This document shows positions 5,260-58,346 of a stretch of 64,000 nucleotides of DNA, piece by piece. Numbering within the stretch: the stretch's first letter is position 1; every line of letters starts with the position of its first letter. The position numbers were made by a program, and so were the translations under genes. Below the pieces are notes generated by a model. It saw only the letters and a program-made list of their open reading frames with translations. It searched no databases and was not told the DNA's origin. The stretch spans positions 3,962 through 67,961 of the forward strand of contig JBMNPD010000003.1 of NCBI GenBank assembly GCA_050943415.1. The letters are read 5' to 3'. The stretch comes from Candidatus Dojkabacteria bacterium (lineage in GTDB: Bacteria; Patescibacteriota; Dojkabacteria; SC72).

Positions 5260-5292
5260 ATCCAGTCGATTTAAATTTATAGGTTTGGCAAA

Positions 5293-5754
5293 ATGGACGA
5301 AAATAATATATACCAAACCACCAAATCTGGTTTGGAAAAATTAGTTAACGAACTCAAAGATAGAGAAAAAAATCTTAGAGTCAAAATCGCAAATACCTTA
5401 AATGAAATGAGAAGCCAAGGTGACCTCAGAGAAAATGATGGATATACCATGGCTTTAGAAGAACAAAACATCAATGAGGAGAGAATATTAGAATTGAAAG
5501 AGAAAATAAAGAATGCAAAAGTCATCAAAGACAAAAGTAAAAACAAAGTGGGTATTGGCGACACAGTCATATTAAAGGGTGAGAAAAACTTGAAATATGA
5601 AATAACTAGTGAAGAAGAAGCTAACCCTCTAGAGGGCAAAGTCTCCCATTTATCACCAATAGGTAAATCTGTAATAAACAAGAAAAAAGGTGAAGAAGTA
5701 AAAATAGAGACACCTACTGGAGTAAAAAAATACAAAATAGAGAGCATAGAGTAA
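5293..5754 (+). CDS. greA: Transcription elongation factor GreA
   Basis: An N-terminal coiled coil (GLEKLVNELKDREKNLRVKIANTLNEMRSQGDLRENDGY) and a C-terminal FKBP-like domain (VGIGDTVILKG...KYEITS) match the GreA/GreB family. Confidence 0.85.
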   Translation: MDENNIYQTTKSGLEKLVNELKDREKNLRVKIANTLNEMRSQGDLRENDGYTMALEEQNINEERILELKEKIKNAKVIKDKSKNKVGIGDTVILKGEKNLKYEITSEEEANPLEGKVSHLSPIGKSVINKKKGEEVKIETPTGVKKYKIESIE

Positions 5755-40025: not shown

Positions 40026-40550
40026 TTACCACAAATCAAGAAATTGGGAATCAAACCCACCATCTTTTGCAAGGTTTAACTTAGGTAACACCTCCTTTAT
40101 ATATAACCACCTATATTTCTTATTCTTATTACATAATCTATCCTTAACAGGGTTGTTTTTAATATATTCCAACAAATTATCAAAATCATTACTATACAAG
40201 ATCTCACGACATTTGAAAGTACCTTGAAAAAGAGAACCACAGAGTCCATGTCTTCTGTTATAGTACATACTATATGCTGTCATACTTTTATGCATCATTC
40301 TAGAAATATCACTCTTACTAGCACCCAACTTTAGAATTAGATGGTAGTGATTTGGCATTATACAGTAAGATAAAATAGAGACATCTAAAGTTTTTTCGGC
40401 TCTACGTAGACAACGGATAAAGTTGTTGTAATCTTTAACATCTAGACATATTCTGCACTTTCTATGACCACGATTATAAACATGGTATATGCCAAATTTT
40501 CTATAATCTTTTATCCTTTTACTATCTGACATTGTTAATATAATAAACAA
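40026..40550 (-). CDS. Small HUH-type transposase-like protein (IS200/RAYT family), copy B, with Phe at the presumed catalytic Tyr position
   Basis: IYHVYNRGHRK and the HuH box CIMPNHYHLILK. It has GSLFQGTFKCREI where copy A has GHLFQGTYKRKKV. Confidence 0.6.
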   Translation of the reverse strand: MFIILTMSDSKRIKDYRKFGIYHVYNRGHRKCRICLDVKDYNNFIRCLRRAEKTLDVSILSYCIMPNHYHLILKLGASKSDISRMMHKSMTAYSMYYNRRHGLCGSLFQGTFKCREILYSNDFDNLLEYIKNNPVKDRLCNKNKKYRWLYIKEVLPKLNLAKDGGFDSQFLDLW

Positions 40551-43727: not shown

Positions 43728-44903
43728 TTAAATCTTTTTTAGATATCTTGATACTATCCAACCTTCTGATTCTAATCCAAACTTTACTCTACACCAACCA
43801 TCTTTTTCTTCTAAAAGTATGAAAACTGAGCCTTCATCAACAGTTTCTAAAATTTTACAACTACTCCACTGACACTCTCTAATATTTACAAATCCATACT
43901 TTGGAGATACTACTTCTACTAATGAATTATCTCCTTTTACAATATTCAACACAATATCAAATGAAGAATCTTCAAAAGGCTGATCGTTAAATTTAAGAAG
44001 AACAAAAGACTCTTTCGCTTCTCCTATTTTAACTTTAGCCTCCATTTCAAATGATAGTTCAACACTTTCATTTGGTAGTATAACTTTGTCAGAGATACTT
44101 ACTGGCCTACTAAAACTCTCCCAAACTTGATTAATTGCAAATCCACTATTTTTCCCACTTGCAGTTGCAATATATATAGGGTCTTTATCTGTAAACCATA
44201 CAAAATCATTCATATTTGTTACAGTTAAAGTAACTTTTGATCTTTCCAATACTTTTACTTCTTTTGAATACTGTAAGTTCTCTATTTTAGCTTTATATTT
44301 CAGATCATTTACTTTTTTCCCTTTCCAATCAGAAAAAAGTTCTTTGACTGATTTTAAAAATTCACCTGTAGCTGGTTTGAATGAAATAGCTGAAATATCT
44401 TTATCATTCTTTTTAATATCCAAAGTTATTGCCTCTATTTCAGTAATATTCCACTTAGTAGATAGTTCATCTACTATTTCTTTAAGAGAAGATTTTGCTC
44501 TACTGGTCATTACTGGATTATTTGATAGGTAACCAATTAGAATTACTCCATTAGCACCTTCTATACCTGCATCCGCTTCTATATATCCTGATTTTCCTTG
44601 ATAGATCAAACCACTTTCATCTAAGAGATATGTGTATGGCAAATCTCTCAAATGTAATCTTGTGATAGAGTAGTAGTAGAGAAATTTAACCCATTTAGCA
44701 GGATCTCTAGAAAGTACAGGAGATACTGTATTTACAGGTGTTACCAATATTTTGTTTGGTTCTGAATATGTTTGAGAAGTTTTATCTAAAAGTGATGTGT
44801 CGAATTTTTGTGAAGTAACTGAGTAAAAAGAGAAAGCATCTACTACAGACGGAAGTGATAACATAATTATTACTAAAAAAATCGATAATAGGAATTTTTT
44901 CAT
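43728..44903 (-). CDS. Secreted protein with a C-terminal bacterial SH3 (SH3b) domain and a possible degenerate Amidase_2/PGRP-like N-terminal domain
   Basis: Signal peptide MKKFLLSIFLVIIMLSLPSVVDA. DLPYTYLLDESGLIYQGKSGY resembles the PGRP DIGYNFLIGxDGxVYEGRGW region. C-terminus GFVNIRECQ..CKILETVDEGSVFILLEEKDGWCRVKF is an SH3b domain. Confidence 0.5.
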   Translation of the reverse strand: MKKFLLSIFLVIIMLSLPSVVDAFSFYSVTSQKFDTSLLDKTSQTYSEPNKILVTPVNTVSPVLSRDPAKWVKFLYYYSITRLHLRDLPYTYLLDESGLIYQGKSGYIEADAGIEGANGVILIGYLSNNPVMTSRAKSSLKEIVDELSTKWNITEIEAITLDIKKNDKDISAISFKPATGEFLKSVKELFSDWKGKKVNDLKYKAKIENLQYSKEVKVLERSKVTLTVTNMNDFVWFTDKDPIYIATASGKNSGFAINQVWESFSRPVSISDKVILPNESVELSFEMEAKVKIGEAKESFVLLKFNDQPFEDSSFDIVLNIVKGDNSLVEVVSPKYGFVNIRECQWSSCKILETVDEGSVFILLEEKDGWCRVKFGLESEGWIVSRYLKKI

Positions 44904-44950: not shown

Positions 44951-45967
44951 TTACTGTTCTTCTAACAAATATGGAACAGGAAGATCTCCTTCATCTTCAA
45001 TCTCACTTTTCTCTAAGAATTCTTCTGAAACAGCACAGATATAGTAATTGATAGTTGCCAGATATTCATTCCCTACAAAATCTTTTACCTTAACATCTGA
45101 ATTGATTATATATGCAGGGAATATATATCCGTGTGAGAAATTTTTGAATAAATATGTAGAGACAAGCTGTTTAGGATCATCTTGAACTATTTCTATAGAG
45201 GACTGCTGTATTGGATTTTTTTCATAATAGCTCTCATTTATACTCATATACTTGCCAAAAATCCTCTTTGTATTTATAAGATTTTTAGGATTCACAGGAA
45301 GATATGCAGAGTATTTAATAATTGACGATGTGTCATAAAGAAAGATATTAAACTGATATAGATTACCTGAGCTATCTACAAGAAGTTTGTACGCATCTGA
45401 ATCTATTTCAAGAGAACCAAACCGAAAATCTCCAATACTATATTTTCCTGAATATATATAATTACCATCAGAATCTTTGGAAACATTAATTTCATCAACC
45501 TGACAATTAAAATAATCTCTAAAGAAGTCTACAACAGCGTTTTGGTCTACAATTTTTATTCCTAAATCTGTTTTCTCACGAGAAGTTAGACTTAAAATAC
45601 CCATATCATAATTGTATCCAACTAAAACTGTACCAAAATTCCAACTAGCAGAGTATTCTGATTCAGCAATTTTAGTAAAATCTGGATTCAACTTTTCAAT
45701 TAAATCTTCAATTGATGCCTTACTTGCTTTGATTCTATATACAGGGACATATTCATTTTGAAAAAGTGACTGTTTAGATGGTATTGTTTTTATACTGTAT
45801 ATATTCTGAGCTACAAATGGTTCAACAAATACTTTATTATTAACTATAGAAGAAGCACGTTGCTCTTTTTTATGTTTGGCAACAAGAAGAAAAATTGTAA
45901 CAAGGACCAGTCCTAGAATTACTCCTGCTAGAATAAACCATTTGTATTTTTTAAAAAAGTTTTTCAT
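44951..45967 (-). CDS. Membrane-anchored (signal-anchor) extracytoplasmic protein, function unknown
   Basis: I prefer the start at the second Met (MKNFFKKYKWFILAGVILGLVLV) at 45967. The track start at 46042 would overlap the upstream gene. Confidence 0.5.
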   Translation of the reverse strand: MKNFFKKYKWFILAGVILGLVLVTIFLLVAKHKKEQRASSIVNNKVFVEPFVAQNIYSIKTIPSKQSLFQNEYVPVYRIKASKASIEDLIEKLNPDFTKIAESEYSASWNFGTVLVGYNYDMGILSLTSREKTDLGIKIVDQNAVVDFFRDYFNCQVDEINVSKDSDGNYIYSGKYSIGDFRFGSLEIDSDAYKLLVDSSGNLYQFNIFLYDTSSIIKYSAYLPVNPKNLINTKRIFGKYMSINESYYEKNPIQQSSIEIVQDDPKQLVSTYLFKNFSHGYIFPAYIINSDVKVKDFVGNEYLATINYYICAVSEEFLEKSEIEDEGDLPVPYLLEEQ

Positions 45968-45974
45968 ATTTAGA

Positions 45975-48500
45975 TTATCTACAAAAACGAATAGAAGACG
46001 CAACCATGCTACCACATGCACTTGATACGGCCCCTCCAACATTTCGAGCTAAATCAGCGAGTTCTCCTTCAGAGCAACCTCTAGAAAGGAAGTATGATTT
46101 TGTCGAAGTTGCAGTTACACACTGTCCATCTACCATGAATTTGTAATGTCCACCATTGCCTGAAAGTAAATCTGCTCCCCATTCACGTACTACAGACGGA
46201 GCTCCTCCCCCATTTCTTCCTTGTACTTGATGTAGAAGTTCATGAGTAAATAGTTTTGAAAGAGTGACATTAGATTGCTTAGCTAACTTATCACCTTTAC
46301 AATAAATTTTATCAGCACTGTAACACCACGCCCAGTCAATACTAGCACACATACGATGTCCAGGACATGTGACAAGTTCTAACTTAGTTCCAAGTCCCAT
46401 ACTTGCTGCTACTTGGTCATAAATTTCCTCTATTGATCCAGAAAAGATTGGAACATCAGCATCTAGATCTTCAAAAAAGAAGTCTCCTCTTCCACTATCA
46501 AATATACTAAACCCCTCACAAGTAACTACTTCTACAGGAGAGATATGGGAATTTACAGATAAAAATGCAGAACTTCCAAAAATAAACTTGAAGAAAAGTA
46601 CCATTACAAGTAATACCCCAACAGAAACAAAAGCTAATGTCTTGGTTACTGCTTTCATTGTTGGCTCTGCTAACTTTGTAGCAACTCTCGTAGCAGTACC
46701 TGTTGCAATATTTCCAACTATATTCCCCAATGGCCCACCAACAACACTCCCTATGACACGATTTATTGCCTTTCCTAATAGCTGCATACCACCTTTTTCT
46801 ACCCATTCTTTTAAAATCTCTCCGGCAAATTTCTTGAATGCATCACTTTGAATTAGAAGATTAGCAATCTGTTCTCTAGATTTCCTTCCTATCTTTGAAT
46901 CAAAATACATTGACACTTTGTTTTGCCATCGTTGGATAGTATTAAATCGATATGCTAAATTACTTAATCTCTCATTCTTTTTTATAAATTCAATTAAAGC
47001 TTGGGCCTGTTCTTGAGAGAGTATTGATAAGACACTCTCCATATATGCGTCATTTATCTTTCCTTTGTCGTTATATAGTCTAGTCATATCAAATCCTTGA
47101 ATACTATTCCCAAACTTATTTTGAAATTTATTCATATTTTCGTAGACTTGGTAGGCATATAGCTCTCCATTCATTAAAGATTTAACACGTACAAGAGGGA
47201 TCCTATAATAGAATTTAAGCAACCGTTCATTAAATCTTTGAGCATATTGTGATCTCGATGTTTTTGCTATTTTGAAATTAATATCTGCTCCGTTAATATT
47301 AATCTTGTTAAACCCACGCACTCCACCTTCACTTAATGTTCTGCTTGCTCCATAATCTACGGGATTGAACCAATGTTTATTTGAACGATTAAAGAAGTTT
47401 CCTGTTATGAAAAGATCACCTGCTTGAATTTGACCAGTACCCTTAAGAGAAGACCAGAAACCATCCATCCTACCGGCAAAAGCTGCAGCTCTCATACTTC
47501 CTGACATACTTCTATTTGCATACATTAATTTTATTTCCTTTTCTAACGCTTTTATTTTCTCTTTTTTATTTGGATCATTACTGTTTTTTAATCTGTTAAC
47601 CTCGTCTTTATATCTTCTAATCTCCATACTATTTTTCCGTTCACTTGTTTTTCTTTGTTCATTCGTTAATGAAGAATCTATATATCGCCGCGAAAGATAA
47701 TAATTTTGTGCCTTTAACATATCACCAGCACTTTCTGCTTCTACTGCCTTGTCACGTATTTCTTGACCCTCAACAAAGACATATACATTTTTGTCATATA
47801 ATAAAGACTTTTTTTCTTTTGTATCTTTTGCTTTCTCTATCCAATTCTTATATTCACCGAATTTTTTTTTAGCTTCTTCTTCTGAACCGTATCTCTCTAT
47901 GAAGTCTGCCAAGGTATATGATTTATTTGGATCTATTAAATGCTTATCTATTAATTGCTCTATCCTTTCTTCTGTACTTATCGCTTTAGCAGAATCAAAG
48001 TTTTCTATTTGCTTCAATCTATCAAATGCTCCATGTAGGTTTGACATAGCTAGAACTGTTTCCTTATCCAATCCATGTTTTTTAGCCCACATACTACCTA
48101 GCAACGCCTGTATTTCATCACCAGCCCAGAAAGCTTTGTTAACTTTTCTGTTCGCTTCATATTTTGTAAATGTTTTATCTAAGAAGCCTGTAGGATCTTT
48201 TAATGCTTTTGGTATATCTTTGGCATTGAGCTTCACTTTATTCCGTTTTCCTTCTCCGTATTTAACACTAAGTAAATCGTAGTTAACAACATCTTCAAAT
48301 GCGTCCATTGTTGATTTGTTTACAAACAGGAGAGGATTTTCAAGTGTAGCAACAAGAGCATCTGCAAATTCAGAGGTACCATCTATGCCTGTGACCTTTA
48401 CTGGTTTAACCTTTGCAGGATGTTTTTTTGTTTCTGCAAAAATAAAATCATATATGGAACCCAAAGCATCTTTATACTGTTTAGGTTTCTCTTTAGCCAT
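45975..48500 (-). CDS. Large bitopic protein (841 aa): about 620-aa cytoplasmic region, one TM, about 190-aa Cys-rich extracytoplasmic domain with an HExxH motif
   Basis: No signal peptide. TM at LAFVSVGVLLVMVLFFKFIFG. C-terminal domain has LFTHELLHQVQGRNGGGAPSVVREWGADL, i.e. HExxH plus a downstream Glu, which is gluzincin-like, and 10 or more Cys. No Walker motifs. Confidence 0.5.
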   Translation of the reverse strand: MAKEKPKQYKDALGSIYDFIFAETKKHPAKVKPVKVTGIDGTSEFADALVATLENPLLFVNKSTMDAFEDVVNYDLLSVKYGEGKRNKVKLNAKDIPKALKDPTGFLDKTFTKYEANRKVNKAFWAGDEIQALLGSMWAKKHGLDKETVLAMSNLHGAFDRLKQIENFDSAKAISTEERIEQLIDKHLIDPNKSYTLADFIERYGSEEEAKKKFGEYKNWIEKAKDTKEKKSLLYDKNVYVFVEGQEIRDKAVEAESAGDMLKAQNYYLSRRYIDSSLTNEQRKTSERKNSMEIRRYKDEVNRLKNSNDPNKKEKIKALEKEIKLMYANRSMSGSMRAAAFAGRMDGFWSSLKGTGQIQAGDLFITGNFFNRSNKHWFNPVDYGASRTLSEGGVRGFNKININGADINFKIAKTSRSQYAQRFNERLLKFYYRIPLVRVKSLMNGELYAYQVYENMNKFQNKFGNSIQGFDMTRLYNDKGKINDAYMESVLSILSQEQAQALIEFIKKNERLSNLAYRFNTIQRWQNKVSMYFDSKIGRKSREQIANLLIQSDAFKKFAGEILKEWVEKGGMQLLGKAINRVIGSVVGGPLGNIVGNIATGTATRVATKLAEPTMKAVTKTLAFVSVGVLLVMVLFFKFIFGSSAFLSVNSHISPVEVVTCEGFSIFDSGRGDFFFEDLDADVPIFSGSIEEIYDQVAASMGLGTKLELVTCPGHRMCASIDWAWCYSADKIYCKGDKLAKQSNVTLSKLFTHELLHQVQGRNGGGAPSVVREWGADLLSGNGGHYKFMVDGQCVTATSTKSYFLSRGCSEGELADLARNVGGAVSSACGSMVASSIRFCR

Positions 48501-48512
48501 ACTTTAATCAAA

Positions 48513-49871
48513 CTATTTAAACATACTACCAATTAATGGTATTCCTGACAGACTTGTTTTGACGGCAGTTGCTGTGTCTCCTACTTGTTTTGACACTGTA
48601 GGAGGAACTATGACAGCTGCCATAGCAGGAGCATTTGCAGCAGCGTATATTGCAACTATTTTAACAACTGCAAGCATAAATCCACCAACCTTTCCATCTA
48701 CAGCTTCTTCACCCGCTAATGATGTTGGAAATGCCAATGTTATTCCTTTTGACTCTGCATAATAAGGTAGGTTAACAATTGCATATGCTATCGGGAAAAC
48801 TAATACATTTCTTAAAGCGGACTTAAATATATTTATAGTTGATGCTTCATTGCCTGGTAATGCACCAGCAAATATAGCCAATGGAGCAAATATTACACTC
48901 ATTATTATTCCTAAATATGCTTTTAAAAGAGTAATCCAAAGCTTTACCATACCCCAGAAGACAATTCCTATGGGAATTAAAGTTAACAAAAGACCAATGA
49001 TACCAACTGTGGTAGCAGTCCCACTTTTAAACACACCCGCGATTGTAAGTATAACAGTGACTAAAGAATTAGTACCAGAAAACAATTTAAAAGTAAAACC
49101 TGTCTTACTAAAGAAATTACCAAACATGGTAATTGGATTCGTTATCTTCACTCCTTCACCCATTTCAGGACCTCCATATAGCAAAATCTGAACAAGCTTC
49201 ATAATGAGGGCTCCAATGTCTATAATCAAACCTATGATTGCAAAACTAAATGTTACAAGTACCAAAGCTACAACTACTTTAGGGATAGAATTACCTACAG
49301 TAACCATTATCTGACCTCCTATCTTATGTCTAAACATAATCATAAAACCAATAGCTATCATTATTACTACAAATCCTGTATACGCTATATTTCTAGTAGT
49401 CATCCACAGGACATCCACTTTCGAATTTCGTAAATCTGTATATCCTGCAGCGTATGTACTATTAGAATCCGCATATCCAGGTACCCACTGTTGTGCCAAA
49501 TGAGCAGGAACATCTACAGTTGGGACACTATTAAACAAGGAATATACTGCTTTCTCACTTGTTTCTAACAGACCCATTTTTGCAGAATCTGGAATAGTAG
49601 GATCATTCATAACTCTCTCCCCTCCTCTTGTACACGAAGGACAAGTTTCCATTAACATAGTTTCTAAACCACCATAGATTTGTTTAGCTATGAATTGTGA
49701 AATATTTTCACCCTTAACATCCGCGAATTTTTCTACTTTGTCTATTAGTTCAACCCAACCTGCAGTAGTATCTAGTACCTCTACTTCCTGAGCATAGGCT
49801 GTTTCTGAAATTGTACTAAATAGAAGAAACGAAAACAGAAAAGTTATAATCAATTTCTTTAGTTTAATCAT
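48513..49871 (-). CDS. Polytopic membrane protein with a cleavable signal peptide and about 130-aa extracytoplasmic N-domain; VirB6/TrbL-like topology
   Basis: Signal LIITFLFSFLLFSTISETAYA, a CPSC-containing soluble domain, then about 7 TM helices. The family assignment rests on topology only. Confidence 0.4.
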   Translation of the reverse strand: MIKLKKLIITFLFSFLLFSTISETAYAQEVEVLDTTAGWVELIDKVEKFADVKGENISQFIAKQIYGGLETMLMETCPSCTRGGERVMNDPTIPDSAKMGLLETSEKAVYSLFNSVPTVDVPAHLAQQWVPGYADSNSTYAAGYTDLRNSKVDVLWMTTRNIAYTGFVVIMIAIGFMIMFRHKIGGQIMVTVGNSIPKVVVALVLVTFSFAIIGLIIDIGALIMKLVQILLYGGPEMGEGVKITNPITMFGNFFSKTGFTFKLFSGTNSLVTVILTIAGVFKSGTATTVGIIGLLLTLIPIGIVFWGMVKLWITLLKAYLGIIMSVIFAPLAIFAGALPGNEASTINIFKSALRNVLVFPIAYAIVNLPYYAESKGITLAFPTSLAGEEAVDGKVGGFMLAVVKIVAIYAAANAPAMAAVIVPPTVSKQVGDTATAVKTSLSGIPLIGSMFK

Positions 49872-49895: not shown

Positions 49896-51350
49896 TTACA
49901 ATTTATAATATTTAGAAGACCTTTTAATAGCTTCCTGTGTTACTCTCCAATACTTATCAAAATTAGATGGGAAATCCTGCCCGGGAGCACTATCTGTTTT
50001 GCTTTGAAAGAACCTTAACATTGTAGGTGAATCATCCCATAAGCACCACACACCAATTTCTAAACGTGTTTCTACTACTATTGCTTTACAGGGTGTAGCA
50101 ACAAAGTGCATCAAGGAATCTTCTGAATTACTAGATATTACTTTTTTCTTAGATGCTTGCTGAGGAGAAAGAGTTGCCTTATGTAGATATGTCATAGCTG
50201 CTGTAGCACAACCTTCAGCTTCACACTCATATGGATCTCCAAATATTGAAGACATTTCAATCATTATATTTACTGGTCCAGTACAATCTCCTGTAGGACC
50301 AACATCTTCACAATCTTCATCTCCTTCTTCGCATTTTATACCGTGACAAGCATTCCATTCTGCTCTACTAAATGAATCCTCAAATACTCCTTTAATTCTA
50401 GCAACAATTTTCCAACACGCAGTTTCTAGGCCGTAATTCATTTCTGTTCTTAGATTCCCAACATCTAAGCAGCCATCTTCTGGTTCTATATCATACTTAT
50501 CTCCTCCTGGTATTTGTTGACGCCAATATAGTCCATCTTCATTATCAGAAGCCACATAGTTACTTTTGCCACCATTAAAATCCGATACGGCTACTTCTGG
50601 AGCACAAAATGTTTTCGGATCATGATCAGCATTTTTGATAATATACTCTCCTGATTCTAAAAGTTCAGTTATCTTTGGGTAAGCAATGAGTGATCCCTTA
50701 ACCATGAATTGCTGTCTTACTGTACCATCTATATTCTTTCGAAAAGTTTCTGCTTCTTTTGGTGCAAGAGCTCTACTTTGAGCAGCTTCGTCCAACACTT
50801 CTCCACTAGAATTGTAAGAAGGATCCCTAGAAGTAATTGTTTTTGTACTATTTTCAAAACCATCTTGACCTAACCAATATCCTAATGGATAAGTTACTTC
50901 TACTAATTGTATCTCTGCATCTTTATCGACAATGACATCTCCACCTACTACCGTACCATCTTTGTAGTCAATAGTACCAGTACCATCTGAACATAAAAGA
51001 GTATCTGATTCTAGTCGATTTGCCACGCTATAACCTCTTTTGCATGACCAAGCTGTTCCCCTGCCCACTATACTACTGGACCCTAAAACAACTTCTGTAA
51101 TATCTACTGTTTCCGAAGCAGGTAGTATCGTAACCTTCATACCATTTTCTTCTGGAAGTATCTTTTCTTCTACTACCTTAGATTTTACTCCACCACAACT
51201 TGTACATTCTTCTGTAGATATTACTTTTATCTCAGTAGCCTTTGTTCCTATATTGATTCTGTTTGTAATTTTTACAACAAAGAAAGAAAACGTTACTAAC
51301 ATTATTAAGAAATAGAGACCTTTTTTGTTTTTTCTTCTTGGTTGCATCAT
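49896..51350 (-). CDS. Secreted Cys-rich protein (484 aa), unknown function
   Basis: N-terminal anchor/signal LYFLIMLVTFSFFVV, more than 20 Cys, an acidic Cys cluster EEGDEDCEDVGPTGDCTGP...YECEAEGC. Confidence 0.5.
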   Translation of the reverse strand: MMQPRRKNKKGLYFLIMLVTFSFFVVKITNRINIGTKATEIKVISTEECTSCGGVKSKVVEEKILPEENGMKVTILPASETVDITEVVLGSSSIVGRGTAWSCKRGYSVANRLESDTLLCSDGTGTIDYKDGTVVGGDVIVDKDAEIQLVEVTYPLGYWLGQDGFENSTKTITSRDPSYNSSGEVLDEAAQSRALAPKEAETFRKNIDGTVRQQFMVKGSLIAYPKITELLESGEYIIKNADHDPKTFCAPEVAVSDFNGGKSNYVASDNEDGLYWRQQIPGGDKYDIEPEDGCLDVGNLRTEMNYGLETACWKIVARIKGVFEDSFSRAEWNACHGIKCEEGDEDCEDVGPTGDCTGPVNIMIEMSSIFGDPYECEAEGCATAAMTYLHKATLSPQQASKKKVISSNSEDSLMHFVATPCKAIVVETRLEIGVWCLWDDSPTMLRFFQSKTDSAPGQDFPSNFDKYWRVTQEAIKRSSKYYKL

Positions 51351-53218
51351 AGATTATTAACCATTTTACCTTTATATCTCTTATTTTTGCCTGATTTAAA
51401 GTATATTACACTTCCCACAACAATTAAAGTAAAAGATGCTAACAAAGCGTAAATCATATCCTCTACCACTCCCGTTTTTGGTATTGAGCCACTTGTAGCA
51501 GTAATGTTTTCATTTGATGTTGTCGATATTGACGGATTGCTTACAGGTAAAGATGATCCATCTGTTGCTCCAACTATACCGTAATTTGTTAATTTTGGAA
51601 TTTTACTTGTAGATGTACTTGTTGGAATTGATGATATATCTTTCAGATCTACATCTATATCTATACTTTCCACATCTTTCATCGTTGTTGTTTGTGTTTT
51701 AACATCAAATGTTGTCATTATATCCAAAGTTATTCTATCTGGAGATGTATATTCAAAATATTTAGTACCATCTTCACTCCAACTGTTTGATACTGTTAGG
51801 GTAAATAGGCCAGCATCTCCTATTAGTGTAGCAATCGGAAGACTTTTACCTAATGTACCAGTTTCGTCAGTATCTTCTATACTTGCTATCAAAATTCCTT
51901 CTCCATGTGATGGCATGTTGCTAAATTTTCCTTTTATGCTCTTAAATGCAGGAGGTGAACTTAATGTTGCAAACGAGTCTATACTGTATTTAGCACCGTT
52001 ATTATCGTAAGTATTTTGTCCTGATTTTATTTCATAGTAATATGTTGTTTCTGGTTGTAGCTTTGATACATCAACATAGTGTACATAGTATTCTCCTTGT
52101 GATACTAAACCATCTCTAGTATCTTTAGCTGTACTGTTTAAGTTTGACTTACTTGTTCCATAATTTACAGATCCTTTTTCTTTTTCTTTTGAAACCCAGA
52201 TCACTGTAAATCCAGTATCTGTAAGATTCGTTACTTTTACACTCTTCTCTCCTGTAACTGTAGTTGTTACTGGTGATACTGCCTTAGTAGAGAGATTTTC
52301 CCAAGGTAATTGGTGAACTATTCTGTATATCCTTTTAAAAGTTTCTTCCTTTGGTTCAGGAGTTGGTGCAGGCGTGGGGGTTGGCGCTGGTCTAGGAACG
52401 GGTGTTGGTGTAGGAGTCGGTATCTCGTCATATGCAACTAGTTTTGCTCCATCAGGTATAAACGAATACATATCTGTTCTTTCTGCCAATGCTAGAGTAT
52501 TTGATGCTGTTAATTGTCCATCGTTATTAAAGAGTGATGAATATACCCCTTCTACTACTGCTCCTCTATTTGTTTCTGAGATTGCTACTATGGTTATGCT
52601 CGTAGTATTTGAGATTGTAACTAGACTTTTATCAGAGATGCTTCTTAAGGATGCTAGATCTATCAACCAAGTTCCTTTGTCTTCTTTTACTACAGCAGAG
52701 ACAGGGTATGTTGATTTGTCACTTAGTATTGCATAGATTATTGGGTTGTCTCCTGATTTCATTGTAATAGATCCAAATATTGGGTGTGGTGTTACTTGTT
52801 GTGGTGTAATAGATGGTGTGGTGAATGTGAACTTTTTACCTCCTTGTGCTGCATATTTGTCTGTCCCAGAAAGAATTGTAAAATCATATGTAGTGCCTTG
52901 TTCTAGGTTATCTACAGTTACATAGTGAGTTAGTTTTCTTCCTGAACCTCTTGTGTCTGTTACTTGTGATTTTTGTGTTCCGTTTTGGTATACAATTACA
53001 CCTCCTGTTAGTGGTGAGTCTGTTATCCATGAAATGTTTATGGAATTGGTAGTTATATCACTAACTACTACATTTTTTGGTTGTGTGTCAGCTGAAGCGT
53101 TGATAATTATTTGAACCACCTTGTATGTTGCAAACAGTAGTATTGGTAATCCTATGATGAGGATTGTTAATACTATATTGTTTTTAGTTCTTCTCTTAGG
53201 AAGTTGAGCAATTTTCAT
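51347..53218 (-). CDS. Cell-surface protein with two FN3-like domains, a Pro/Thr linker and a C-terminal sortase-type sorting signal (IPKTG)
   Basis: FN3-like VVVSDITTNSINISWITDSPLTGGVIVYQ...TTYDFTIL and VTNLTDTGFTVIWVS...TTYYYEIK. Linker PTPTPTPVPRPAPTPTPAPTPEP. C-terminus SIPKTG + VVEDMIYALLASFTLIVVGSVIYF + KSGKNKRYKGK is a tripartite sorting signal. Confidence 0.6.
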   Translation of the reverse strand: MKIAQLPKRRTKNNIVLTILIIGLPILLFATYKVVQIIINASADTQPKNVVVSDITTNSINISWITDSPLTGGVIVYQNGTQKSQVTDTRGSGRKLTHYVTVDNLEQGTTYDFTILSGTDKYAAQGGKKFTFTTPSITPQQVTPHPIFGSITMKSGDNPIIYAILSDKSTYPVSAVVKEDKGTWLIDLASLRSISDKSLVTISNTTSITIVAISETNRGAVVEGVYSSLFNNDGQLTASNTLALAERTDMYSFIPDGAKLVAYDEIPTPTPTPVPRPAPTPTPAPTPEPKEETFKRIYRIVHQLPWENLSTKAVSPVTTTVTGEKSVKVTNLTDTGFTVIWVSKEKEKGSVNYGTSKSNLNSTAKDTRDGLVSQGEYYVHYVDVSKLQPETTYYYEIKSGQNTYDNNGAKYSIDSFATLSSPPAFKSIKGKFSNMPSHGEGILIASIEDTDETGTLGKSLPIATLIGDAGLFTLTVSNSWSEDGTKYFEYTSPDRITLDIMTTFDVKTQTTTMKDVESIDIDVDLKDISSIPTSTSTSKIPKLTNYGIVGATDGSSLPVSNPSISTTSNENITATSGSIPKTGVVEDMIYALLASFTLIVVGSVIYFKSGKNKRYKGKMVNNL

Positions 53219-53266: not shown

Positions 53267-53554
53267 TTATTCTTTTTCGGTAGTATCTTTTTTGATTCCA
53301 GTGATTATTCCGTTTACCACAGATATTGCTGCTCCTATCCCTCTTACTGGTTTTATTATTAGTGTATTTATTTCGTTTAATGTTTCTGTTATGGATGTAA
53401 TTGATGTTTGTAGGTCTTTGATTATGGGTTCTGTTTTTGATACTGTATCTCTGCTTTCTTTAAGTAGCATTGCTAAGTAGTAGAGTACTACACATAGCAT
53501 TATTGTTAGTATTGATACTATTATCATCCAAAATATTGGTGGTACTGTTTCCAT
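53267..53554 (-). CDS. Small bitopic membrane protein (95 aa)
   Basis: N-terminal TM IFWMIIVSILTIMLCVVLYYLAMLL, then a polar helical tail. Confidence 0.45.
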   Translation of the reverse strand: METVPPIFWMIIVSILTIMLCVVLYYLAMLLKESRDTVSKTEPIIKDLQTSITSITETLNEINTLIIKPVRGIGAAISVVNGIITGIKKDTTEKE

Positions 53555-53577: not shown

Positions 53578-56500
53578 TTACATACTTTTACTGTTAGCAC
53601 ATTTACCATTATGTGTTCCTCCTTCATGCCAGAGAAGGGAACCACAGTTGGTATCTTTTGGTTCGAATTTGTTAATACGGATGAAGTAGCCATTACTAGA
53701 ACTGATGGGGTAATCGAATCCGTATTCTTGACCATCGGTTAGTTGTAAGCCTTCGTATTTACCTTTAGAAGTGGGCCACCATGAGATGTTGTTAGCTGTT
53801 AAACCTTCTACTTTGTTGATACTATCTAACAAACTACGTGCGGTATATATCTGTGAATAACCGTGAACACCTACTAAGTTCCAACCTGCACTAAGGTTTA
53901 TTGGAACACTGCTAGTTATTTTATGACCAGGTATACTTACTTCAGTGGTATTAGTTGTATATATGAGATAGCCTCTACCTGGAGTTACACTGAAGTCTTC
54001 GCCTGTAACTTCTCCATTTACATATCCAATACCTTTCCATCTACCGTCAGAGAAGTAAGAGAAGTGTTCAACTCGAGCTCCTTTGTTAATTAACCATTTA
54101 AGTAGACTAGATGCCTTGGTATATTCATCGTCATCTAGTTTAGGTATGTAATCAAAGGATATGAGGTTGACTCCTTGTTTAAGGTTGAGGGTCATTACAT
54201 CTGCACTTTTTTTGTATTTGATATCTAAAGCATCTGATTTTAGTACATAGTCTTCTCCTACTTTAGGGTTGTCAGGATCTGCAGGGAATTGGAGACCGGC
54301 TACACCATTCATTTCAATATAGAAGATACGAAGATTGTTTTCTCCTCCTTCTACTTTTTCATTTTCAATTAGACCATTTACTTCCATATCATAGAAACCG
54401 TATTCTGGAAGATATGTGATGTAGCCACTACCTGTAGCATTTATTTCTGAAGATTGATCATTAACACCAAGGACAGAGTCAGAAATACCATGAGCATCCC
54501 CTTTATCTTGGACTAAAGGTTTACCTAAGCAATCTACAAACTCATCATCACTCTCTTTTGTACATTCGGTAAATCGTTTACTAAGGGAAGTTACTGCTTC
54601 AATTCTTTCGCTAACAAGAGAAGAAACTGTTGTAGGATTATTACTATCTCTTGCTTGTTGGATAGAATTGTTAAGCGCTAAAACTTCTTCTCCTGCAGTA
54701 TTCGACAGATATGTAATTAAAACGTTATAATTTTCAACATAACCATCAGGTGTGGTAACAGACTTTAACTTGATTTCTATTGGTTCTTGATCATATTTAC
54801 ATTCGATAACAATATTATCACAAGCATCTTTTTCACAGACAACCTCTTTAAACGCCATAATCTTTTGTATTTCCTCATTTGTTAAAATTTTACTTGGTTT
54901 GTCTGTCTCTTTCCCGTCATCTTGTACAATCTCTGTTGTTTGACCATTTTGTGCAACCTCCTCTTTGTTAATAAAACCACAATCTTGTCTCTCACCTGCT
55001 TTACAATCATTATACTTAATTACATTTTTATTATGATTTTCTCTTAAAATACTCAACTCTTCAAGAGTAATTTTGTCCTTTTCTAGAAGTTCAGAAAAAG
55101 CTACACCTAAATTAGGATATGACTCCAATTCTATTGTTTCCTTTAACATATCAGAATTTACATTTTTAAGGTCAAGATCAAATGTACCATTATCATTGTA
55201 TACTAAAACCATATCTTTATCCCCTACTTTAAAAGGTATTTGTTTCTTATCATCAACAACAGTTTCTATACTTTCTTTCTGTAAGTTGAAAAAATTATCT
55301 ACTGCTTCTTCACTGTATTGATTGCTAGTTAATAATTTTGAAGCAAACTCCGTACGATACACAATATTTTTTGATTGAATTTTTATACTACACCAATTTT
55401 CAAATTGACTGCCAATACATACAGTACAATCTCCACCACATTGTTTTTTAATGACGTTTTGAGTTTCTTTATCAAAAATATCCAACGACAATCCATCAAT
55501 TGTAAAATCCCCTTTTTCATCCGTTTTAACATCTGCAACCCTATAAGGTTGTTTTCCACTCTCTGTTATAGCGGCTATACTTACACATTTACCTCCATTA
55601 CAAACTTGACCACTTCCACATTGAACACCTGCACAAGCATCATATGCACCGATCTGAATAGGTTTACCTGGAGTTATATATATAGGTTTATAAGTACAAA
55701 CATTATTTTTATCACATTTTTCAATAGTTTCCCTTACTGTCACATTATCACTTTGTGTATTATATCCAGCAATTGCATTCGCATTTCCAACAAGGACTGT
55801 CTGCTTCATTGCTGGATCCATATTATTATTGCCTGCAAGACCCATATAATCTAACACTGCATTATCTATTACCCCTCCTTTTTCATTAGCTAACAACCTT
55901 GCAACATTTCCGTATCCTATTTCCTTCATTTTTTCATCTGCTTTCTTTCTATATTCTGCAGCCTCTTCTTCACTTAAATTTTCATCATTAGCCTTCTCTA
56001 ATGCTTCGAACAATGGTGTTGTATGTGCTGGTGTAATCCAACTTGGAATATTAAATTTATTTGCAGGTTGAGTTTGAGAACTAGAAGTTTGTCCAGAAGA
56101 TCCTTCATCTCTTTGCTCTCCTTCTTCCGAATTATTAACTGTTCCAGTATCAACTGTATCAGTACCAGGTCCCCCTGATTCAAGAGAAACAACTGCTTCT
56201 TTATTGGTAGATTCTGTGACTTTATTATAAATAGCAGTCAACAAACCACTTGTTAATCCACCTAGAATGGTATTAGTAATTATCATATTAGTAGGAGTTG
56301 GTGTTTCATTATTTACATCTCCCTCCTCGTTCGCACGCACACTCTTAATAAAGTTATCCTCATTCATACTTAAATCCTTCTCCCATTCATCACTAACTAC
56401 TAGATCTGGATATGCTATTGAGCTATTTCCATAAACCCAATCATAGGGATCACTCAATGTATAGTTCTCATATTGTGCATACGCTTTAATCATATCCTGA

Positions 56501-57300
56501 CCCTCTTCTACTATTATTGGTTCTCCCTCTATTGTTCTAATGTTATTACCATCTAAATACCAACTACCATTATCTGCGGTAACACTACTGTAATATATTG
56601 ATTCTTTATCCAAATAACCATTTACAAACTTAATATATACTATTGAATCATTTACATAGTTTCCTTTATCATTAACTACCTTACCAAAGATAGGGGCCGG
56701 AGCTTTCACCTCTCTATTTAATGTATAGAAAGTTGCACTCTTGTTAATATCCTTCTTCCAACTAATCAAACCATCTCCTACTCTAAAGTAATACTCCTTG
56801 TTAGCATCCAAATTCTTTAATGTTACATGGTGTGTAAAATAATTACCAAATCTTCTTACCTTCACACTATCACAATCGTAGTTACTAGTATCTACTACAA
56901 AATCTTCACTAACCTTAGCTTTTTCGTTAAAATCGTCTACACATTTCTTCTCTGCTTTTGCTATATCCCTATCATCATAGGCCACATCTGCGCCTATCCA
57001 ACTTAAAGGACCAGGAAGAATGCTATCCTTCTCCTTATAATACACTACTCCTCGCATAGGATAGTTAGTCATCCAAGAGACTGTAAAAGATGTATCTGTG
57101 ACATTAGTTAATCTTACATCGTGTGGCTTGAAAAATATTGATAAAAATAGCTGAAAGCCTAAATACAACACTAACACTACACCCAACAGTATTCCAAAGA
57201 TTTTTGATACTTTCTTTAAAATTCTCTTTGCTTTCTCTCCTCTATACTTATTCTTATCAATATTTTCTGTATATGCAAAACCACTTATCTGATTATCCAT
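53578..57300 (-). CDS. Giant surface protein (1240 aa) with an N-terminal TM anchor, an FN3-like domain and multiple Cys-rich modules
   Basis: TM ILLGVVLVLYLGFQLFLSIFF. FN3-like LTNVTDTSFTVSWMTNYPMRGVVYY...KEYYFRV. Cys-rich GAYDACAGVQCGSGQVCNGGKCVS and CGGDCTVCIGSQFENWCS. Confidence 0.55.
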   Translation of the reverse strand: MDNQISGFAYTENIDKNKYRGEKAKRILKKVSKIFGILLGVVLVLYLGFQLFLSIFFKPHDVRLTNVTDTSFTVSWMTNYPMRGVVYYKEKDSILPGPLSWIGADVAYDDRDIAKAEKKCVDDFNEKAKVSEDFVVDTSNYDCDSVKVRRFGNYFTHHVTLKNLDANKEYYFRVGDGLISWKKDINKSATFYTLNREVKAPAPIFGKVVNDKGNYVNDSIVYIKFVNGYLDKESIYYSSVTADNGSWYLDGNNIRTIEGEPIIVEEGQDMIKAYAQYENYTLSDPYDWVYGNSSIAYPDLVVSDEWEKDLSMNEDNFIKSVRANEEGDVNNETPTPTNMIITNTILGGLTSGLLTAIYNKVTESTNKEAVVSLESGGPGTDTVDTGTVNNSEEGEQRDEGSSGQTSSSQTQPANKFNIPSWITPAHTTPLFEALEKANDENLSEEEAAEYRKKADEKMKEIGYGNVARLLANEKGGVIDNAVLDYMGLAGNNNMDPAMKQTVLVGNANAIAGYNTQSDNVTVRETIEKCDKNNVCTYKPIYITPGKPIQIGAYDACAGVQCGSGQVCNGGKCVSIAAITESGKQPYRVADVKTDEKGDFTIDGLSLDIFDKETQNVIKKQCGGDCTVCIGSQFENWCSIKIQSKNIVYRTEFASKLLTSNQYSEEAVDNFFNLQKESIETVVDDKKQIPFKVGDKDMVLVYNDNGTFDLDLKNVNSDMLKETIELESYPNLGVAFSELLEKDKITLEELSILRENHNKNVIKYNDCKAGERQDCGFINKEEVAQNGQTTEIVQDDGKETDKPSKILTNEEIQKIMAFKEVVCEKDACDNIVIECKYDQEPIEIKLKSVTTPDGYVENYNVLITYLSNTAGEEVLALNNSIQQARDSNNPTTVSSLVSERIEAVTSLSKRFTECTKESDDEFVDCLGKPLVQDKGDAHGISDSVLGVNDQSSEINATGSGYITYLPEYGFYDMEVNGLIENEKVEGGENNLRIFYIEMNGVAGLQFPADPDNPKVGEDYVLKSDALDIKYKKSADVMTLNLKQGVNLISFDYIPKLDDDEYTKASSLLKWLINKGARVEHFSYFSDGRWKGIGYVNGEVTGEDFSVTPGRGYLIYTTNTTEVSIPGHKITSSVPINLSAGWNLVGVHGYSQIYTARSLLDSINKVEGLTANNISWWPTSKGKYEGLQLTDGQEYGFDYPISSSNGYFIRINKFEPKDTNCGSLLWHEGGTHNGKCANSKSM

Positions 57301-57362: not shown

Positions 57363-58346
57363 TTAATCATGGATTAACACATAATCACCTTTTTCAAAAA
57401 TACCATACAAATATTTTGCATCCTCTACTAGCATTCGTATACATCCACCACTAATCCGTTTACCAATATTACTTTCAGACTCTACCCACCTACTACCATC
57501 AGATCTGGGTATCCATATCAATCCGTGTAAACCATACCAAGTCGATTTAGTAGGTTCATAGTAAAACGCCATCCAGTAAGGCATATATTTATTACCTGGT
57601 GCTATCGGTTGTAAACCCTTATCCACTATCTTGAATACACCTCTTACTGATGAATCTTCTCTAGCACCTGAAAGGAATATTTCTCTAACAACTACACCAT
57701 CAATCCAGACATAAAGCTTTTGTTGAGTATTATCTACTTCTATATATTTGTATGCAAACTTTCCATCAGTTGAAGCTGTCATTATAGATGGAATCTCTAC
57801 AATTATGTCATGCTCACCACTACGATATTTAGTATTTAATGAATTGTAAACAACAGTATAATTAGGAACATACTCTGAAATTCTACTGAGGTATTCTCCT
57901 TTTGAGTTTTTGACTAATTCTTTTTTCGAATACAAAGGAGAAAAATATTTCTCTACATCTGAGTGCACCCATGTGTTAAATAGGTCTTTAGATATGTCTC
58001 CATCTTGAATCATCTTAAGAAACTTTTCGTTTTCTAACTTTTTGCAAAAATCCATATAACAGAAAAGAATATTGTAATTTGGACTATCTGTGACTCCAAC
58101 AACTTCTGTAGTACTAGCAGAAGCTACTGTAGGAATTAATGTCTCTACTTCCACCTCCTTTATATCCTCTTGTATGTATTTCACTAAATCTTCGTTCCTA
58201 TTCTTAGAAAGCATTAAAAGACCTATCAGTAACATTGCAAAGGACCAAATACACAAAACAAAAATAAGAAGATTCTTACTTTCCAACAATCCTTTAGAAA
58301 GAAATTTCATAGCAAATAATGTATATGAAAAAACCGTATATTTCAA
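57363..58346 (-). CDS. Membrane-anchored L,D-transpeptidase (YkuD domain) protein
   Basis: N-terminal TM. C-terminal YkuD catalytic motifs GLHGLIW and SGGCIRM (His/Cys dyad). Confidence 0.75.
   Translation of the reverse strand: MKYTVFSYTLFAMKFLSKGLLESKNLLIFVLCIWSFAMLLIGLLMLSKNRNEDLVKYIQEDIKEVEVETLIPTVASASTTEVVGVTDSPNYNILFCYMDFCKKLENEKFLKMIQDGDISKDLFNTWVHSDVEKYFSPLYSKKELVKNSKGEYLSRISEYVPNYTVVYNSLNTKYRSGEHDIIVEIPSIMTASTDGKFAYKYIEVDNTQQKLYVWIDGVVVREIFLSGAREDSSVRGVFKIVDKGLQPIAPGNKYMPYWMAFYYEPTKSTWYGLHGLIWIPRSDGSRWVESESNIGKRISGGCIRMLVEDAKYLYGIFEKGDYVLIHD

Follow-up and report, generated by a model that had tools for sequence, protein, structure and literature searches.

Gene g5, at positions 48513..49871 on the minus strand of a 64,000-nucleotide stretch of Candidatus Dojkabacteria DNA (contig JBMNPD010000003.1; the whole stretch is called the window below), encodes a membrane protein that we read, with a probability of about 0.6, as a strongly diverged VirB6-type subunit of a chromosomal, non-conjugative, ATPase-coupled type IV secretion system (T4SS) of Patescibacteria. 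Homology of g5 to VirB6, taken by itself, is highly probable. The protein is a new, strongly diverged variant of the VirB6 of the known Patescibacteria T4SS and not a new kind of machine; what is unusual is the context of its operon, free of ATPases and rich in hydrolases and adhesins. A first-pass annotation had likened the layout of the gene product to the VirB6/TrbL/TcpH type, and this reading is supported by the predicted fold, by the profile matches of relatives, by the comparison with the plasmid family pLS20_p028/TcpH, and by the loci in which relatives are found. Patescibacteria, or Candidate Phyla Radiation (CPR), account for a large part of the diversity of bacteria and live in attachment to host cells.

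The gene and the parts of its product are as follows (aa, amino acids):

48513..49871, minus strand: g5, polytopic VirB6-like membrane protein of 452 aa (single open reading frame with an ATG start; AlphaFold2 model; family links to TrbL, pLS20_p028 and Mbov_0396)
49791..49871, minus strand: predicted signal peptide of g5, residues 1-27, with cleavage after AYA (sequence reading, hydropathy, conservation of A27)
49422..49790, minus strand: extracytoplasmic helical N-domain of g5, residues ~28-150, with CPSC at 77-80 (AlphaFold2 helices 35-149)
48516..49421, minus strand: membrane core of g5, residues ~151-452, with an invariant GFMIMFRxKIGGQ loop and a PLxxxxGALPGN motif (the region that aligns with TrbL, TrwI and p028)

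The N-terminus, MIKLKKLIITFLFSFLLFSTISETAYA followed by QE, has the basic n-region, hydrophobic core and AxA site of a typical Sec signal peptide, and A27 at the predicted cleavage site is kept in at least 90% of 54 orthologues. Residues ~28-150 are hydrophilic, all-helical by prediction, and carry C77-P-S-C80. The signal peptide and the CPSC-bearing ectodomain of about 130 aa described in the first-pass annotation are thus both recovered. The CxxC pair occurs in about 25 of the 54 orthologues and is elsewhere lost as a pair, which argues that it is probably a dispensable local disulfide rather than a catalytic motif or functional signature. Hydropathy marks segments at residues ~162-180, 199-217, 263-281, 291-309, 320-338, (352-370) and 395-420, while the AlphaFold2 model (54-sequence alignment; mean predicted local distance difference test score, pLDDT, of 81; predicted template modelling score, pTM, of 0.62) places long helices at 152-179, 186-232, 270-282, 287-336 (50 residues), 342-374 and 393-411. 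Comparison of the two sets puts the true membrane passes at five to seven. The about seven transmembrane (TM) helices annotated initially therefore agree with the six to seven segments that hydropathy finds over residues 162-420, while the number of true passes loosens to that range. By both approaches, g5 combines at least five hydrophobic helices with an extracytoplasmic N-terminal region, as in TrbL/VirB6 proteins. The size of the family shows that the gene is real: 332 homologues came from word-indexed searching and, out of 1.84 billion cluster representatives, 4,084 were retrieved by profile. Both g5 and the product of the next gene downstream, g6, have counterparts of 100% identity in a Candidatus Dojkabacteria metagenome-assembled genome (MAG).

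Structural comparison of the g5 model with the PDB by Foldseek returned TrwI/VirB6 chains of the R388 T4SS at ranks 1-5 (E=0.02-0.12); the probability is 0.99-1.00 down to rank 4 and drops to 0.80 at rank 5, and the template modelling scores (TM-scores) are at most 0.49 when normalised to the target. Rank 6 was DotA. The fold predicted for g5 is thus closest to that of TrwI, the VirB6 of the R388 T4SS. Channels, G-protein-coupled receptors (GPCRs) and transporters appeared only at probabilities of 0.2 or less, so that a better match to a transporter family, which the initial annotation had named as the competing outcome, did not materialise.

Curated profiles were scanned against 57 distant members of the family, each of which matches the Dojkabacteria profile at E 1e-47 to 1e-137. 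Pfam TrbL matched three of the 57 (best E=5.4e-4), including the protein P0182 at a sub-threshold 17.1 bits, and NCBIfam returned Mbov_0396 (four members), pLS20_p028 (three), MMCAP2_0566 (two) and CD3337/EF1877 (one) and no other family, at E=2e-4 to 5e-3 (down to 7e-4 for pLS20_p028). All four NCBIfam families consist of membrane proteins of monoderm conjugation systems. Since only about 0.6 chance matches are expected with 18,950 models, ten matches within one functional class are not a chance result. Matches to Mollicutes-derived models have to be weighed cautiously, because these models match small AT-rich membrane proteins noisily. The TrbL match of P0182 (its residues 575-662) maps to the conserved core of g5 at ~287-376, and where hhalign aligns the family weakly with TrwI and TcpH, the register is the same. 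Single distant members also gave weak Pfam matches to the TrbC/VirB2 and T4SS_pilin models, a hint that some of the long VirB6-like proteins contain pilin-like stretches or fusions.

A profile of 265 g5 family sequences was further compared with 14 plasmid-derived N-domains of the pLS20_p028/TcpH family. Taken absolutely, the resulting hhalign match is a marginal one (E=0.0036, score 33.5; probability 9%). Controls comprised Wzy_C, YidC, SecY, TetA, QacE and a Na/Ca exchanger, each set against the g5 family, p028 and TrwI for a total of 18 comparisons; these gave E=0.04-0.76, the best being 0.042, and the accepted pair of p028/TcpH and TrwI gave E=0.0071. With 0.0036 against 0.0071, the g5 family is as close to the monoderm VirB6 analogue as p028/TcpH is to classical VirB6. 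Comparisons of the g5 family with single TcpH and p028 sequences by hhalign, and of the family hidden Markov model (HMM) with TcpH, p028 and TrwI among decoys by hmmsearch, were non-significant. Profile similarity to TrbL/VirB6 and TcpH, the test that the initial annotation had proposed, is therefore lacking for g5 itself and holds for its family in part, as sub-threshold matches of relatives and as a p028/TcpH match that stands above the controls.

Several of these results weigh against the VirB6 reading. Neither g5 nor its 53 closest orthologues match any Pfam or NCBIfam family, Pfam TrbL (PF04610) finds nothing in g5 at E<=0.1 and its gathering score of 25.9 bits is not reached, and no PDB sequence matches g5 even by orthologue profiles. 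All curated-profile matches on relatives fall below the families' own cut-offs, the Foldseek E of 0.02 is weak and the TM-score borderline, and hhalign of the g5 family against TrwI (E=0.059-0.079, probability <1%) lies within the range of the controls. The absence of a significant direct profile match for g5 would also be seen with an unrelated polytopic protein, for example a permease, a flippase or a Wzy/GT-C polymerase of wall or surface-polymer biogenesis that resembles VirB6 by chance; helical bundles are prone to spurious structural matches, the Foldseek E is only 0.02, and the operon does contain wall-active enzymes. We nonetheless regard such a protein as quite improbable. No transporter, flippase or glycosyltransferase family was found in Pfam, NCBIfam or the PDB for g5 or 110 relatives, and the sole curated families matched are conjugation membrane proteins. 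Foldseek probabilities for transporters and GPCRs stay at or below 0.2 against 0.99-1.0 for the four best VirB6 chains, and hhalign scores Wzy_C, YidC, SecY, TetA and the Na/Ca exchanger worse than p028/TcpH. Furthermore, relatives of g5 adjoin T4SS pilins and PrgI.

These neighbourhoods were observed around distant family members (homologous loci are labelled L001, L003 and so on). In L008 and L009, which belong to other lineages, the VirB6-like gene adjoins arrays of PF18895 T4SS_pilin genes and a gene for a large SLT_3 lysozyme-like protein. L096 is a recognisable T4SS locus: besides a pilin array it encodes a protein that joins a cytoplasmic domain, a TM segment and an M23 domain, the VirB3-like PrgI, and a TraC-like product. 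Large neighbours of distant members (1145-1297 aa) were considered as hidden VirB4 proteins and rejected, as Pfam found nothing in them.

Comparison with characterised systems shows what g5 shares with VirB6 proteins and where it departs from them. Like g5, TrwI/VirB6 of R388 (PDB 8rt9, 8rtd, 7o3v; Pfam TrbL PF04610) is polytopic, with long helices and an extracytoplasmic N-terminal part, and the weak alignments between the two keep one register (g5 287-359 with TrwI 142-210). In contrast to TrwI, g5 has a cleavable signal peptide followed by a helical ectodomain of ~120 aa, belongs to a monoderm CPR host, and is chromosomal and non-conjugative, without adjoining VirB5, VirB2, VirB3, VirB4 or VirB8. 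The pLS20_p028/TcpH family (NF045890), the VirB6 analogue of the Firmicutes conjugative plasmids pLS20 and pCW3, shares the monoderm envelope with g5 and is the best profile-profile match of the g5 family, while g5 itself has no match to NF045890. A dedicated wall hydrolase is present in both settings, namely TcpG in the pCW3 system and g6 in the g5 operon. However, p028/TcpH proteins are larger (630-980 aa), are extended at length at the C-terminus and lack a signal peptide, and their genes are plasmid-borne, directly after VirD4 and near VirB4, whereas g5 is chromosomal and lies between g4 and g6 with no type IV coupling protein (T4CP) nearby. The Mycoplasma proteins Mbov_0396 (NF045889) and MMCAP2_0566 (NF045848) from integrative and conjugative elements (ICEs), together with the mobilome membrane protein CD3337/EF1877 (NF046089), are matched by distant members and by none of the Dojkabacteria subfamily.

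A further close system is that surveyed by Quinonero-Coronel et al. 2025 (PMC12102498), who describe for most classes of Patescibacteria a T4SS that is chromosomal, relaxase-less and MPF_FATA-related, lies often close to dnaA and is accompanied by VirB2-like pilin arrays and M23-type hydrolases. The g5 operon is likewise chromosomal, MPF_FATA-like, without a relaxase and with M23-bearing hydrolases; the surveyed systems often lie near oriC, and two paralogues of g5 lie 5-8 kb from dnaA. Unlike these systems, the operon has no pilin array, VirB3, VirB4 or TrsD nearby and carries FN3 and Cys-rich surface proteins instead, the VirB2-like pilin arrays and PrgI being found beside distant g5 relatives and not in the operon. 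In the same survey, Microgenomatia had few VirB6 homologues and Gracilibacteria none, 'suggesting extreme sequence divergence' (PMC12102498), and g5 probably escapes its VirB6/PrgH HMMs too. With more than 4,000 cluster representatives, and with none of the ~110 scanned members reaching a Pfam or NCBIfam cut-off, the g5 family is a strong candidate for the missing VirB6, and a family HMM could complete T4SS annotation across CPR genomes.

To follow the gene across genomes, relatives were scanned with one genome per GTDB species, which yielded 325 relatives of g5. The best 80 of the 325 are all on Dojkabacteria/WS6-type contigs, and across these 80 the gene order rsmB-rsmE, (g1) g2 g3 g4 g5 g6 (g7) g8, uvrD recurs while g5 identity is only 35-70%. 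Such a shared order at this level of divergence argues for vertical inheritance and against a mobile element, and on this comparative evidence we take the g5 operon to be a vertically inherited core feature of Dojkabacteria. The same evidence bears on the idea that g5 is what remains of an integrated conjugative element or plasmid, or is carried as cargo by one. That the nearest curated families come from ICEs and conjugative plasmids, and that an IS200-like transposase open reading frame (ORF) lies 8 kb away (40026-40550), would fit such an origin. Yet the order of rsmB-rsmE, operon and uvrD is the same in ~40-50 species-level genomes of 35-70% identity, the operon has no relaxase, integrase, T4CP or VirB4, a tblastn search of 72,556 plasmids was empty, and the flanks are housekeeping genes. 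A mobile origin is thus effectively refuted by synteny, and we give it next to no credence.

Two further VirB6-like paralogues stand in tandem 5-8 kb from dnaA in Dojkabacteria (L095:8068-14709, L006:8198-14501, L092:10001-14254). They measure ~600 and ~850 aa, with large insertions, and are followed by a g6-like 'DFIF' protein without a hydrolase domain. Three VirB6-like genes are therefore present in a genome of ~0.75 Mb, and L095 shares a 750-kb contig with the operon copy L001. As a separate observation, many GTDB MAGs with the Dojkabacteria-type operon and synteny (L011, L017, L019 and others) are titled 'uncultured Candidatus Saccharibacteria bacterium', and a few short contigs sit in bins of Clostridia, Gammaproteobacteria or Caldisericales; placeholder labels or mis-binning probably explain these titles and bins.

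In the window, the operon consists of about nine tightly spaced genes, all on the minus strand with gaps of -4 to 48 nt, g5 being given as the fifth. A scan for promoters and terminators, uninformative on the whole, showed no minus-strand terminator-like site inside it. The genes other than g5 are as follows:

57363..58346, minus strand: YkuD L,D-transpeptidase, 327 aa, the first same-strand gene (at the same spot in only two other loci)
53578..57300, minus strand: g1, N-anchored FN3-type surface protein, 1240 aa (variable; in about half of the loci)
53267..53554, minus strand: g2, small membrane protein, 95 aa, with an N-terminal TM segment and a coiled coil, DUF948-like (present in 61 loci)
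51347..53218, minus strand: g3, FN3 / Pur_ac_phosph_N surface protein, 623 aa, with a C-terminal IPKTG, TM segment and basic tail (Pfam; 67 loci)
49896..51350, minus strand: g4, N-anchored or secreted Cys-rich protein, 484 aa, with at least 8 invariant Cys (63 loci)
45975..48500, minus strand: g6, partner protein, 841 aa (79 of 88 loci have it directly after the VirB6-like gene; also beside the paralogues)
44951..45967, minus strand: g7, bitopic protein of ~338 aa with an N-terminal TM segment and an external domain (position conserved, sequence fast-evolving)
43728..44903, minus strand: g8, secreted protein, 391 aa, with a C-terminal bacterial SH3 (wall-binding) domain (Pfam SH3_3, 1.3e-7; 57 loci)

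Around g5, the operon thus encodes surface proteins with FN3 domains, a secreted protein rich in Cys and wall hydrolases, and no ATPase. The YkuD gene is probably not a core part of the operon, since it occupies this spot in only two other loci. The g4 protein matched nothing in Pfam or, with profiles, in the PDB. At the C-terminus of g3 (window 51347-51500, minus strand), IPKTG is followed by a hydrophobic helix and a basic tail, as in a sortase-type sorting signal; of 67 orthologues only 10 carry this signal, and the 64-kb window showed no sortase gene. For g2 as a pilin or VirB3-like protein, the weak matches to Mollicutes conjugation families were not accepted as evidence, being noisy and mixed with matches to many unrelated membrane families. 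Similarly, a VirB8/TcpC-like identity of g7 received no signal from profiles against the PDB, from Pfam on 40 orthologues or from hhalign against TcpC. The mechanically called ORF of g7 (44951-46042, minus strand) overlaps the end of g6 by 68 nt, and the true start is probably the internal ATG at 45967 (MKNFFKKYKW..., just before the TM helix) rather than 46042.

The g6 protein is a constant companion of the VirB6-like gene. Its cytoplasmic N-terminus is nearly invariant (QYxDALGSIYDFIF...KVKPVKVTGxDGTSE); its further parts are a helical cytoplasmic region of ~600 aa, one TM segment (~622-640) and an extracytoplasmic C-domain. In most orthologues this C-domain is a Peptidase_M23 domain (HxxxD / HLH motifs; 30 bits in L003, L003:11363-14029), whereas in the window copy (45975-46550) and its nearest relative it is a Cys-containing, zincin-like domain with HELLHQ (HExxH). 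The extracytoplasmic head of g6, as read from sequence, is therefore swapped, with M23 replaced by an unrelated HELLHQ domain in these two proteins. Against the PDB, the HELLHQ domain found at best the ColH collagenase at E=0.4, and a structure prediction of g6 from a 10-sequence alignment reached a pLDDT of 53, so low that its Foldseek matches were set aside as meaningless. Comparable architectures exist beside distant family members: the 984-aa protein at L096:16664-19618 combines a coiled coil on the cytoplasmic side with a TM region rich in Gly and an M23 domain, and proteins of ~1187-1450 aa with SLT_3 or NAGPA-like ends stand beside the VirB6-like gene in L009:3896-7459 and L008:6000-9563. 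This succession of cytoplasmic domain, TM segment and wall hydrolase in other CPR lineages appears reminiscent of g6.

The first-pass annotation had remarked that g5 is accompanied by adhesin-like proteins rather than ATPases. The FN3 and Cys-rich genes bear this out, as does the lack of any VirB4/VirD4, both in the window and over 10 kb around the gene in more than 80 loci. No VirB4/VirD4-type P-loop ATPase was found in the 64-kb window. Searches for VirB4, T4CP, VirB3 and VirB8 within 10 kb of g5 in ~90 loci were negative; with phmmer, the queries TcpF and TrwK (VirB4), TcpA and TrwB (T4CP), TcpC, TrwG, TrwM, TrwL, TcpD, TcpE and TcpG had no match at E<=1 among all ORFs of 90 loci. VirB4, VirD4, VirB3 and VirB8 were not found near the dnaA-side paralogues either (within 10 kb), and T4SS-pilin genes, TrsD and PrgI were not found in the g5 operon by Pfam and NCBIfam. 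No relaxase was found in the operon or the window. The missing ATPase and pilins, like the failure of searches to assign g4, g6 or g7 to VirB1, VirB8 or another T4SS role, are to be added to the counterpoints given above. On the other side, two rows of Table S1 of the Patescibacteria survey mark Dojkabacteria assemblies as VirB4-positive (PMC12102498), and the preprint of the survey names Dojkabacteria among the T4SS-bearing groups. From this published survey alone, we infer that VirB4 is encoded elsewhere in the genome.

In an ATPase-coupled T4SS of this kind, g5 would oligomerise in the cytoplasmic membrane, much as TrwI of R388 forms a pentamer, and serve as a platform or channel beneath the machine's extracellular part. 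The g6 protein would open the peptidoglycan locally through its swappable M23 or zincin-like domain, and its large cytoplasmic domain could connect the platform with components in the cytoplasm. Of the surface proteins, those with FN3 or SH3 domains and the Cys-rich one would form or decorate a wall-spanning, host-contacting part, and energy would come from the VirB4 ATPase encoded elsewhere in the genome.

A T4SS-derived envelope module that works independently of an ATPase would explain the same locus differently. Here, the g5 and g6 scaffold would position wall hydrolases and anchor or export the FN3 and Cys-rich proteins, for example at a site of host attachment or wall remodelling. In every genome sampled, the three paralogous loci are free of ATPases over 10 kb, and the pair of VirB6-like and g6-like genes recurs alone, both in the dnaA-side tandem and in the operon copy. 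The operon is, moreover, rich in wall enzymes (M23/zincin-like, SH3b, YkuD) and FN3 proteins and has no pilins, and the presence of three paralogues in only ~0.75 Mb of genome suggests that their roles have diversified. However, an absence within 10 kb is uninformative on the rest of the genome, and relatives do occur in loci with PrgI and a TraC-like gene. Nor is any VirB6 known to work without VirB4. Moreover, T4SS genes are dispersed in some classes, Microgenomatia VirB3 being mostly away from virB4 (PMC12102498). We consider an ATPase-independent module unlikely, though it is the main rival of the ATPase-coupled reading. Tentatively, and with a shade more doubt still, one may imagine a VirB4-independent two-gene module, a VirB6-like platform with a 'DFIF-motif' protein, as the builder of a host-contact structure that spans the wall and is rich in FN3 and Cys; the operon copy of the module would have recruited interchangeable M23/HExxH heads. 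The pairing of VirB6-like and 'DFIF' g6-like genes in Dojkabacteria was previously unrecognised.

In Southlakia epibionticum (ML1), the T4SS including virB6 is reported to be essential for epibiotic growth (Wang et al. 2023); in the sources cited here, Southlakia appears as the single species genetically tested for the need of a T4SS in a host-attached lifestyle. The class-wide operon, the g6 partner and the three paralogues offer testable handles on the host-contact apparatus of ultra-small cells, and bear on the use of VirB6-type platforms apart from a classical ATPase locus.

Two minor observations concern other parts of the window. The IS200/IS605-type Y1 transposase-like ORF at 40026-40550 (minus strand; Pfam Y1_Tnp, E=9.8e-9) sits between a TPR protein and a G5-domain protein and is not called at this place in the syntenic loci L001 and L003. 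Finally, two antiparallel ORFs of 153-156 aa, at 5277-5747 on the minus strand and 5293-5754 on the plus strand, overlap almost completely.

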